Both the position numbers and the translations under genes were made by a program. A model generated the notes under the pieces. The model ran no database searches. It saw only the letters and a program-made list of their open reading frames with translations, and had not been told where the DNA came from. DNA of 64,000 nt from Escherichia coli (GTDB taxonomy: Bacteria > Pseudomonadota > Gammaproteobacteria > Enterobacterales > Enterobacteriaceae), in assembly GCF_016026235.1 (NCBI RefSeq), contig NZ_CP065613.1. The stretch is one strand, 5' to 3'. Position 1 is the stretch's first letter. Each line of letters starts with the position of its first letter. Positions 12,381 to 56,677 of the stretch are shown one piece after another.

Positions 12381-13241
<861 letters not shown>

Positions 13242-13435
13242 TCAATATTCCTTTTCAACTGACTCAAAATGGAGAAATACACTCCGCCGCCTTATGACGG
13301 GCAGTCTGACAAGGGTAAACAATAAAGCATAATTTTGCCAAATAGATCACAGATTTCTCATCTGAATCACCTTGCTTTTGGCGAAAAAATCCCCGCAGAG
13401 CGGGGCTCAGACAGATATCAATGTGCGCTTTGTCA

Positions 13436-13535
13436 TGCCGGATGCGGCGTGAACGCCTTATCCGGCCTACAAAAACCTGCAAATTCAATATATTGCAGGA
13501 TACGTGTAGGCCTGATAAGCGTAGCGCATCAGGCA
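13436..13535. repeat. BIME: two inverted REP elements with a central palindrome
   Basis: GCCGGATGCGGCGTGAACGCCTTATCCGGCCTAC ... GTAGGCCTGATAAGCGTAGCGCATCAGGC. Confidence 0.85.
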
Positions 13536-13548
13536 ATTTTGCTTTTGG

Positions 13549-13576
13549 CGAAAAAAAGACCCGCAGAGCGGGCCTT
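13549..13576 (-). terminator. Intrinsic terminator of fbaA
   Basis: GC hairpin (CCCGCAGAGCGGG) followed by a T7 run on the minus strand, directly 3' of the fbaA stop. Confidence 0.6.
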
Positions 13577-13598
13577 GAGATAAGCAGAAAGGAATATC

Positions 13599-14678
13599 TT
13601 ACAGAACGTCGATCGCGTTCAGTTCCTGGAATGCTTTTTCCAGACGAGCGATCATCGAAGTCTGACCGGCACGCAGCCATACGCGCGGATCGTAGTATTT
13701 CTTGTTCGGCTGATCTTCGCCTTTCGGGTTACCCAGCTGACCCTGCAGATAAGCTTCGTTCGCTTTGTAGTAGTTCAGAACGCCTTCCCAGGTTGCCCAT
13801 TGGGTATCGGTATCGATGTTCATTTTTACTACGCCGTAGCTTACGGAGTCTTTGATTTCCTGAGCAGTAGAACCGGAACCACCGTGGAATACGAAGTTCA
13901 GGCTGTTGTGCGGCAGGTTGTGTTTCTTGGAAACATATTCCTGAGAATCACGCAGGATGGTCGGAGTCAGAACCACGTTACCCGGCTTGTAAACACCGTG
14001 TACGTTACCGAAGGACGCTGCGATGGTGAAACGCGGGCTGATTTTGCTCAGTTCGGTGTATGCGTAATCAACGTCTTCCGGCTGGGTGTACAGTGCAGAA
14101 GCGTCCATGTGGCTGTTGTCCACGCCGTCTTCTTCACCACCGGTGCAACCCAGTTCGATTTCCAGAGTCATGCCGATTTTGGACATACGCTCCAGGTATT
14201 TAGAGCAGATTTCGATGTTCTCTTGCAGAGATTCTTCAGACAGGTCGATCATGTGAGAAGAGAACAGCGGCTTACCGGTAGCTGCGAAGTGTTTTTCACC
14301 CGCGTCCAGCAGACCGTCGATCCACGGCAGCAGTTTCTTCGCGCAGTGGTCAGTGTGCAGGATAACCGGAACACCATAATGTTCAGCCATCTGGTGAACG
14401 TGATGCGCACCAGAGATCGCGCCCAGGATAGCAGCACCCTGCGGAACGTCAGATTTCACGCCTTTACCAGCGATAAAGGAAGCACCACCGTTGGAGAACT
14501 GAACGATAACCGGCGCTTTAACTTTAGCAGCAGTTTCCAGTACGGCGTTGATGGAGTCAGTACCGACGCAGTTTACTGCTGGCAGTGCGAAGTTGTTTTC
14601 TTTTGCTACCTGGAAAACTTTCTGTACGTCATCACCAGTGATTACGCCAGGTTTTACGAAATCAAAAATCTTAGACAT
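13599..14678 (-). CDS. fbaA: Fructose-bisphosphate aldolase class II
   Basis: ORF trimmed to MSKIFDFVKPG...; 359 aa. Confidence 0.97.
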   Translation of the reverse strand: MSKIFDFVKPGVITGDDVQKVFQVAKENNFALPAVNCVGTDSINAVLETAAKVKAPVIVQFSNGGASFIAGKGVKSDVPQGAAILGAISGAHHVHQMAEHYGVPVILHTDHCAKKLLPWIDGLLDAGEKHFAATGKPLFSSHMIDLSEESLQENIEICSKYLERMSKIGMTLEIELGCTGGEEDGVDNSHMDASALYTQPEDVDYAYTELSKISPRFTIAASFGNVHGVYKPGNVVLTPTILRDSQEYVSKKHNLPHNSLNFVFHGGSGSTAQEIKDSVSYGVVKMNIDTDTQWATWEGVLNYYKANEAYLQGQLGNPKGEDQPNKKYYDPRVWLRAGQTSMIARLEKAFQELNAIDVL

Positions 14679-56648: not shown

Positions 56649-56677
56649 TTTGCATTTGTCATCGCCCGTATGCTTTC

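Follow-up and report, generated by a model that had tools for sequence, protein, structure and literature searches.

The spacer between fbaA and mscS was analyzed in a 64,000-nucleotide stretch of Escherichia coli DNA (contig NZ_CP065613.1, assembly GCF_016026235.1), referred to here as the window. fbaA encodes a class II fructose-bisphosphate aldolase and lies on the minus strand at 13599..14678 (K-12 3070165-3071244), as identified from the open reading frame list and the annotation under all of its BLAST matches; mscS lies on the same strand at 12381..13241 (open reading frame list and annotation). The fbaA-mscS region is identical to that of E. coli K-12 MG1655, and window coordinates equal the MG1655 (NC_000913.3) coordinate minus 3,056,566. 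Reading from fbaA, the spacer contains a proximal terminator (T2, 13539..13576, minus strand) whose hairpin lies 22 nt downstream of the fbaA stop codon, a bacterial interspersed mosaic element of the BIME-1 type (13408-13538), a distal terminator (T1, 13372..13407, minus strand) that abuts the left end of the element, and a region upstream of mscS (13242-13370) that is conserved across genera and starts directly after the distal terminator. T1 and T2 are copies of one duplicated sequence, and the origin of this duplication is the subject of the present analysis.

A repeat search revealed an 18-nt sequence, TTGCTTTTGGCGAAAAAA, that is repeated exactly and in direct orientation at 13372-13389 and 13539-13556 and is adjoined by a 24-nt repeat of 88% identity (13384-13407 and 13552-13575), with a spacing of 167-168 nt between the two modules. 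The 18-mer occurred twice in the 64-kb window when up to 3 mismatches were allowed (0.09 occurrences expected), a count reached in 0 of 100 shuffles, and the hairpin core CCCGCAGAGCGGG was found at the same two sites only. An initial annotation of this DNA, made from the sequence alone, had described imperfect direct repeats at 13371-13410 and 13537-13579 flanking a pair of repetitive extragenic palindromic (REP) sequences. Both strings are present at these positions and the core of each module stands, but the outer nucleotides do not belong to it; the repeated target proper comprises 13372-13407 and 13539-13576, the CAG at 13408-13410 is part of the left terminal motif of BIME-1, and the TT at 13537-13538 lies on the element side.

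Each module had also been described as a GC hairpin with a T-run on the minus strand, and a terminator scan, RNA folding and published Term-seq data all agreed with this description. The scan identified a 9-pair stem (13576-13556) followed by TTTTTTT in the proximal copy, and a 6-pair GC stem (13405-13391) followed by TTTTTT in the distal copy. RNA folds reproduced both hairpins, with unremarkable short-window energy z-scores (approximately -1.8). T2 thus consists of a hairpin (13556-13576) and a U-tract (13551-13557) followed by CGCCAAAAGCAA, and was delimited by the scan, the fold, Term-seq and alignment with a short allele of the locus. T1 has the same order of parts (hairpin 13391-13405 with six G-C pairs, U-tract 13384-13389, then CGCCAAAAGCAA) and was delimited by the repeats, the scan, the fold and Term-seq.

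The initial annotation had proposed 3'-end mapping of fbaA transcripts as a check, and Term-seq data for MG1655 grown in LB to an OD of 0.4, in LB to an OD of 2.0 and in M63 (Adams et al. 2021, PMC7815308, supplementary file 1) place RNA 3' ends inside both U-tracts. The T2 end maps to K-12 3070119/3070118 (window 13553/13552), the fifth or sixth U of the U7 tract, and is classed as 'primary, fbaA', with 160,555 reads in LB at OD 0.4, 54,607 at OD 2.0 and 120,854 in M63. The T1 end maps to K-12 3069950 (window 13384), the last U of the U6 tract, and is classed as 'orphan'; at OD 2.0 in LB it is represented by 44,902 reads compared with the 54,607 at T2. Since 3' ends fall in both U-tracts, both copies are working terminators on the fbaA/mscS strand, intrinsic by their hairpin and U-tract, with T2 as the primary fbaA terminator and T1 as a second functional one. 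A read-through RNA folds into the proximal hairpin, a long BIME hairpin and the distal hairpin (-95 kcal/mol, z = -6.1). Most fbaA transcription would accordingly be expected to end at the proximal copy without entering the BIME, and read-through, prominent in LB at OD 2.0, to end at the distal copy, ahead of the mscS promoter region.

The two modules enclose a single-copy BIME-1, composed of one Y palindromic unit (PU), an L linker and one inverted Z1 PU. The Y-type PU, or REP (13437..13470, plus strand), was recognized as an inverted repeat and by an exact match to the Y consensus GCCGGATGCGGCGTGAACGCCTTATCCGGCCTAC. The L linker (13471..13505) has a core, AATTCAATATATTG, that resembles the integration host factor (IHF) consensus; it is unique in the window and conserved in all BIME-1 copies aligned, as is the segment TGCAAATTCAATATATTGCAG (13478-13498) in all sampled BIME-1s, where an IHF site is predicted from sequence. 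The Z1-type PU (13506..13534, minus strand), supported by inverted repeats and alignment, is GTAG-headed on the plus strand, inverted relative to Y and 29 nt long, the published z1 length (PMC8266576). It was invariant in an alignment with the three other BIME-1s located at satP-mog, fepA-entD and tsx-yajD. The same alignment revealed conserved terminal motifs outside the PUs, CAGATTGCTGACAAAGTGCGCTTTGTTCAT on the left and RTTTTGCGTTTGTCATCAGTCTC on the right, the outer 14 nt of which form inverted repeats AGAYTGMTGACAAA. The window carries one BIME-1 unit, as do the E. coli alleles sampled.

At fbaA the left terminal motif (13408..13436) is a diverged copy of CAGATTGCTGACAAAGTGCGCTTTGTTCAT, as judged by alignment with other BIME-1 loci, and its orthologue in Escherichia sp. 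E1V33 reads CAGACAGATGACAACGTGCGCTTTGTTCAT. A 25-nt segment between module 1 and the Y PU was considered as unique or inserted non-BIME DNA; it is this left terminal motif. A longer duplication reaching over TCTG[CTTA]TCTCAAGG upstream of the hairpin was likewise dropped after the left end of the element (CAGA...) had been defined from other loci. On the right, where BIME-1 typically carries RTTTTGCGTTTGTCATCAGTCTC in the arrangement ...GGCAATTTTGCGTTTGTCATCAGTCTC followed by a hairpin, comparison of 25 BIME-1 loci showed that a remnant, AATT (13535..13538), together with a shared TTGC is all that is left; the place of approximately 19 nt of the canonical motif (TTGCGTTTGTCATCAGTCTC) is taken by the target-derived TTGCTTTTGGCGAAAAAAAG of the same length, and identity to the right motif is 13/23, all within the first 13 nt. 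Two Rfam small RNA families matched the element: ES036 (CssrF) matched the L linker at 13471-13513 on the plus strand (47.3 bits versus a gathering score of 37.6), and naRNA4 (CssrE) gave sub-threshold matches on the Y PU (13432-13467). Both families appear to have been modelled on BIME/REP sequence.

Comparison of complete E. coli genomes revealed two alleles of the spacer. The long allele was present in 3,724 of 5,426 genomes, in which a 451-nt query across the spacer was fully covered; the remaining approximately 1,700 (~31%) were shorter, and those sampled, among them APEC O1 and an O25b:H4-ST131 strain, gave a 284-nt match. The sampled short alleles lack exactly 167 nt and consist of the left flank and one module, carrying the fbaA-proximal sequence, with no BIME; the sequence of T2 is that found in these empty-site genomes. 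The difference equals the 131-nt BIME-1 (13408-13538) plus 36 nt of duplicated target. In genomes without the fbaA BIME, the segment 13411-13536 found its best matches at other BIME-1 loci, with alignments starting at query position 6-9. A short allele of exactly this kind is also the expected product of recombination within the 18-nt repeat, so E. coli alone gives no direction to the change and polarity rests on outgroups.

Taking a single genome for each species, we retrieved the surroundings of mscS and extracted the fbaA-mscS spacer from 57 loci. At approximately 50 of these the spacer was 158-221 nt long with a single G+C hairpin and T-run and no PU, in Citrobacter, Klebsiella, Raoultella, Kluyvera, Enterobacter, Kosakonia, Phytobacter, Pluralibacter, Leclercia and other genera. 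The short-allele segment that follows the U-tract, CGCCAAAAGCAAGGTG, aligned to TGCCATTTCAATGTG of Citrobacter at equal spacing to the conserved block upstream of mscS. We had considered whether CGCCAAAAGCAA in the short allele is the scar of a lost BIME right motif; as it aligns base for base to the Citrobacter spacer, CGCCAAAAGCAAGGTG represents ancestral spacer rather than a scar. Within Escherichia, two divergent species representatives labelled 'E. coli' (L003 and L004) had the short allele, E. whittamii had the long allele, in which the distal hairpin has undergone point decay, and Escherichia sp. E1V33 (L006:1997-2370) had a 169-nt terminator plus BIME-1 unit in 2.2 tandem copies (96% identity), giving a spacer with three terminators and two BIMEs. 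Since some 50 outgroup species have one hairpin and no BIME, these comparisons indicate that the single terminator is ancestral and that the BIME and second module are derived, although old within Escherichia. Compared with the ancestral type, the distal E. coli stem carries a two-sided change from G.U to C-G (GGCCCGC/GCGGGTC to CCCCGC/GCGGGG), which hints that the distal copy may have been maintained in E. coli. Three further species had longer spacers (Intestinirhabdus alba, 405 nt; Entomohabitans teleogrylli, 494 nt; Kosakonia oryziphila, 2,123 nt) caused by other, unrelated insertions, and the I. alba insert contains an ERIC-like stretch (...GGTAAGTGACCGGGGTGGGCGA...).

The same comparisons bear on an order of events in which tandem terminators came first, BIME-1 landed between them later, and the short allele in ~31% of genomes is a secondary deletion. 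The exact match of the short allele to recombination within the 18-nt repeat fits this order, as do the long alleles of E. whittamii and E1V33, which make the event old. Against it, two terminators without a BIME were seen at none of the ~57 species-level outgroup loci and in none of the sampled E. coli alleles, and the empty sites at three further BIME-1 loci described below hold one hairpin, one of these sites being empty throughout E. coli and filled only in another lineage. We therefore give this order very little credence.

The initial annotation had offered, as a second possibility, that the module belongs to the repeat element itself. A sensitive search of 5,424 E. coli genomes with module 1 and the adjacent 25 nt gave two places per long-allele genome and one per short-allele genome, all at fbaA-mscS, and the module was not found in any of three further REP clusters present in the window, which had no flanking direct repeats beyond their PUs. 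The module is therefore not a BIME component, since it is found nowhere else in E. coli genomes. Conserved flanking motifs of BIME-1 do exist, and the start of the module (TTTTGCTTTTGGCGA) agrees with the right motif (TTTTGCGTTTGTCAT) at 12 of 15 positions, so that travel of the module with the BIME as a standard extra-PU part was worth weighing. But the module is also present in BIME-free genomes, where it can be aligned to the Citrobacter spacer, and other BIME-1 loci carry different hairpins; we consider this explanation to have almost no chance of being correct. The initial annotation had named recurrence of the module at unrelated BIME loci as evidence against a duplicated fbaA terminator. 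The module sequence does not recur in this literal sense; the duplication does, but involves another local hairpin at every such locus.

Of the remaining REP clusters in the window, the one at 56508-56660 is a Y and Z1 PU pair with BIME-1-type terminal motifs (cagattgataacaaagtacgcg and gttttgcatttgtcatc) and a short linker without an IHF motif; only at its left end is there an abutting terminator hairpin, and flanking duplication is absent. A window search for further copies of the terminal motifs returned only the element at 56538, at chance level. The clusters at 48837-48920 and 53284-53410 each combine a Y PU with a longer, putative Z2-type PU and show no direct repeats in their flanks other than the PUs themselves. 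Within the window, hairpin duplication was observed at BIME-1 only.

To extend the analysis beyond fbaA, metagenome contigs were scanned for the Y-tail plus L-linker pattern, which gave 120 stretches; 104 usable copies fell into 25 clusters by their outer flanks, taken here as 25 independent genomic loci. At each locus the 110 nt left of the core were aligned against the 110 nt right of it, with 600 cross-locus pairs as control. Six of the 25 loci scored above all 600 control alignments, and nine had a control fraction of at most 0.012. When the flanks were anchored at the element ends, 10 of the 25 reached the 99th percentile of the control, with the repeat lying 0-2 nt from each end. Overall, 10-13 of the 25 loci had a locus-specific hairpin directly repeated against both ends of the element. 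The repeated unit was a different stem-loop at each locus, 18-27 nt in length, and its loop had the same orientation in both copies, as expected for direct repeats. The usual context was terminator-like, the left copy being bordered on its outer side by an A-run and the right copy by a T-run. As these runs lie outside the copies, the duplication is typically confined to a terminator's stem-loop, the terminator often being bidirectional.

Matched empty sites were identified at three further BIME-1 loci; the L186 locus, which is not from E. coli, was left out of this comparison. At pitA-uspB, 1,940 genomes were filled and the sampled others were 173 nt shorter, the empty site reading AAAA-CGAGCGGGTCAGTTTACTGGCCCGCT-TTTTTT with one hairpin. 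The empty allele at rlmC-artJ contains one copy of AAGCCGCAGGTGCGGCTT. At ysgA-metE, none of the 5,426 E. coli genomes covered at least 80% of the filled query, which derives from another lineage, and the sampled allele has one hairpin. Copies are also often lost or decayed: one rlmC-artJ variant (L210) has a 24-nt deletion of the right copy, and one tsx-yajD allele (L085 versus L116) has lost the right motif and hairpin by deletion. Loss or decay of a copy after insertion would explain part of the BIME-1 loci that lack a duplication; these are mostly truncated elements, loci with a hairpin on one side only or decayed copies, and possibly include very short duplications.

Recurrence also bears on a two-step route, in which BIME-1 inserted just past the terminator and unequal crossing-over or slippage later produced the terminator-BIME-terminator order, one conceivable course being that the unit was duplicated in tandem and one BIME was then lost. 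Amplification of the unit does occur at this locus, as the 2.2 copies in E1V33 demonstrate, and the extended 18-nt identity would favour unequal exchange. Yet this route needs two precise events, repeated independently at 10 or more loci with different hairpins and with only 0-2 nt of slack, and a terminator-BIME allele without the second copy was not seen in sampled E. coli, E. whittamii or E1V33. It is, in our view, very improbable, by a hair less so than an origin from pre-existing tandem terminators.

Taken together, these data favour the first proposal of the initial annotation, namely that the fbaA terminator was duplicated upon insertion of the BIME: filled and empty alleles differ by 167 nt, approximately 50 species have a single hairpin, and the pattern recurs at 10 or more unrelated loci. 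We assign a probability of roughly 0.8 to the reading that the modules are a duplication of the local fbaA terminator tied to BIME-1 insertion, best read as a target-site duplication of the terminator hairpin. Regarding the chemistry, BIME-1 would be a unit of ~150 nt resembling a MITE (a miniature transposable element of the inverted-repeat kind), with terminal inverted repeats AGAYTGMTGACAAA. Its two ends would each be linked to a different strand, one at either base of an extruded stem-loop or cruciform, where the phosphates are close in space, and gap repair would then copy the whole hairpin on both sides, giving a duplication equal to the hairpin ±1-2 nt. Joining at the stem-loop bases is the simplest reading because the ends of the element do not vary, the hairpins of the host share no sequence relationship and the duplication has the length of the stem-loop; taken alone, this staggered-joining chemistry has in our estimate a little short of even odds.

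The fbaA case is atypical in that its duplication (36-38 nt) also covers the U-tract and CGCCAAAAGCAA. The left junction is of the usual kind, with the repeat ending at 13407 and the element starting at 13408, while at the right junction the repeat stands in place of the last ~19 nt of the element. An extra step would thus be required, either a right junction formed through TTTTGC.TTTG microhomology between the right motif of the element and the target past the U-tract, or a later short conversion tract that copied TTGCTTTTGGCGAAAAAA from the flank of the distal copy. By either path the proximal hairpin would regain a U-tract; a typical insertion would leave it with none and push fbaA termination past the BIME. 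With the U-tract inside the duplication, both copies terminate.

These junctions raise a replicative alternative, in which a strand stalled at the hairpin copied BIME-1 from elsewhere by microhomology-guided template switches, returned upstream and re-copied the terminator; it differs from the preferred explanation in mechanism only and overlaps with it on origin. Microhomology is present at both fbaA junctions (TTTTGC.TTTG on the right, TCAGA versus TGAGA on the left), and the truncated right end of the element fits a homology-guided junction. The other loci, however, have unrelated hairpins and yet the same junction nucleotides (CAGATTG... and ...CAGTCTC) with complete terminal motifs. Because their junctions lie at fixed nucleotides of the element, they point to end recognition rather than microhomology, and we regard template switching as unlikely, though less so than the other alternatives considered here.

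Several observations weigh against a target-site duplication of the hairpin. The right junction at fbaA lacks the canonical right motif and is not that of a textbook target duplication. The short allele can arise from the long one by recombination within the repeat, as noted above. The distal 3' end was detected in one of the three growth conditions (LB at OD 2.0 only) and, as an orphan, has no source transcript assigned to it. Approximately half of the sampled BIME-1 loci are without hairpin duplication. The insertion chemistry is a deduction from footprints, and no transposase with matching ends was identified. Finally, the sole enzyme linked to REP/BIME is the HUH protein TnpA-REP/RAYT, whose family makes no target duplication (PMC2817692).

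The element corresponds to known BIME-1 (RIP / RIB) sequences in its Y PU, conserved L linker and inverted Z1 PU, in its position at the 3' end of a transcription unit and in its polymorphic presence among E. coli strains (PMC3333891, PMC1187871); it differs in being flanked by a duplicated host terminator and in having lost most of its right terminal motif. The published accounts consulted call the mechanism of REP/BIME dissemination unknown and do not describe target duplication (PMC8266576, PMC3333891). Our full-text literature searches returned no description of BIME hairpin duplication, and an earlier description in the older literature is possible.

The termini of BIME-1 match those of the Yersinia miniature insertion sequence YPAL/RU-2 (Y. 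pestis sequence in PMC2759123), with 14/15 and 15/18 identical positions (CAGATTGCTGACAAA in BIME-1 and CAGACTGCTGACAAA in YPAL; AGATTGCTGACAAAGTGC in BIME-1 and AGGTTATTGACAAAGTGC in YPAL); at fbaA itself the left YPAL-type end is diverged and the right one mostly missing. In the part of the YPAL literature available to us, duplications of 3-26 bp are reported, with targets spanning or adjoining dyad symmetries (De Gregorio et al. 2006, as summarized in PMC2229807). The whole-hairpin duplications of 18-27 nt at 10 BIME-1 loci agree with this, and both elements share an intergenic location, a length of ~150-170 nt and a composition that is not AT-rich. YPAL (~168-bp consensus) differs in having no Y/L/Z1 arrangement or IHF linker inside, the RU-2 interior being judged by eye, and the 36-38 nt duplicated at fbaA exceed the YPAL range reported in that part of the literature. 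Its termini and behaviour accordingly relate BIME-1 to YPAL without making it one of the YPAL elements. The wider proposal, that integration of BIME-1 (a REPIN) is a structure-directed, two-strand reaction at extruded terminator stem-loops that duplicates the whole hairpin, and that BIME-1 and YPAL belong to the same mobile family on the grounds of their terminal inverted repeats and this footprint, is offered tentatively, with the odds somewhat against it.

As in the target-site duplications of classical MITEs and insertion sequences, BIME-1 elements have host direct repeats against their ends (at fbaA in the usual form on the left only), a single copy stands in the empty site, and the repeated sequence differs at each locus. 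In contrast to these systems, the length duplicated by BIME-1 is not fixed and equals a stem-loop (18-27 nt; 36-38 nt at fbaA), which would imply that structure, and not B-form DNA spacing, sets the stagger. BIME-1 is also an inverted REP doublet, or REPIN, of the kind associated with RAYT (TnpA-REP, HUH Y1), and its REP hairpins are sub-terminal, 23-30 nt from the ends, much like IS200/IS605 ends. Transposition of the IS200/IS605 type is single-stranded and leaves no target duplication (PMC2817692), and the hairpin-duplication footprint is not predicted by the HUH model. Like other tandem intrinsic terminators, the fbaA pair places two hairpins with U-tracts in series past a highly expressed gene, both with mapped 3' ends; unlike them, the pair is paralogous, has a 131-nt mobile element between its members and is absent from about one-third of E. 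coli genomes.

Downstream of both terminators lies the conserved mscS upstream block. Its elements, TGTGATC..TTGGCA..TTGTTTACCCTT (13311-13351, minus strand), are kept in ~55 enterobacterial species amid variable spacer and probably represent an mscS promoter or regulatory site. A sigma-54 reading of TGGCA-N-TGC upstream of mscS was rejected, as its spacing deviates by one and conservation does not extend to the GC. Because the conserved block lies beyond both terminators, both would insulate mscS from fbaA transcription. On the other side of fbaA, the pgk-fbaA spacer contains an 'orphan' Term-seq 3' end on the minus strand at window ~14748 (K-12 3071314) in all three growth conditions. The surrounding sequence (...GAATCCCCAGGAGCTTACATAAGTAAGTGACTGGGGTGAGCG...) looks like an ERIC/IRU repeat.

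On its own, the fbaA-mscS duplication is an ordinary, explained result of repeat insertion, and the interest lies in its generality. That BIME-1 has YPAL-like terminal repeats and typically duplicates a whole terminator hairpin is, in our judgement, a result of moderate interest. REP/BIME are among the most abundant enterobacterial repeats, and a hairpin-duplication footprint with matched empty sites constrains how they spread: it would imply staggered joining at two stem-loop bases, making the mechanism directly testable, and would explain the location of BIME-1 at the 3' ends of transcription units. Insertion of BIME-1 can create tandem terminators or BIME-bearing 3' UTR (untranslated region) isoforms. 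K-12-type strains have two working fbaA terminators that would insulate mscS, compared with one in approximately one-third of E. coli, and this natural allele pair could be used to study read-through. If integration is structure-directed, the spread of REP/BIME would not be explained by a single-strand, duplication-free HUH model alone, and BIME-1 insertion would systematically rewire 3' ends by placing the element in the 3' UTR between two terminator stems, and at fbaA between two full terminators.

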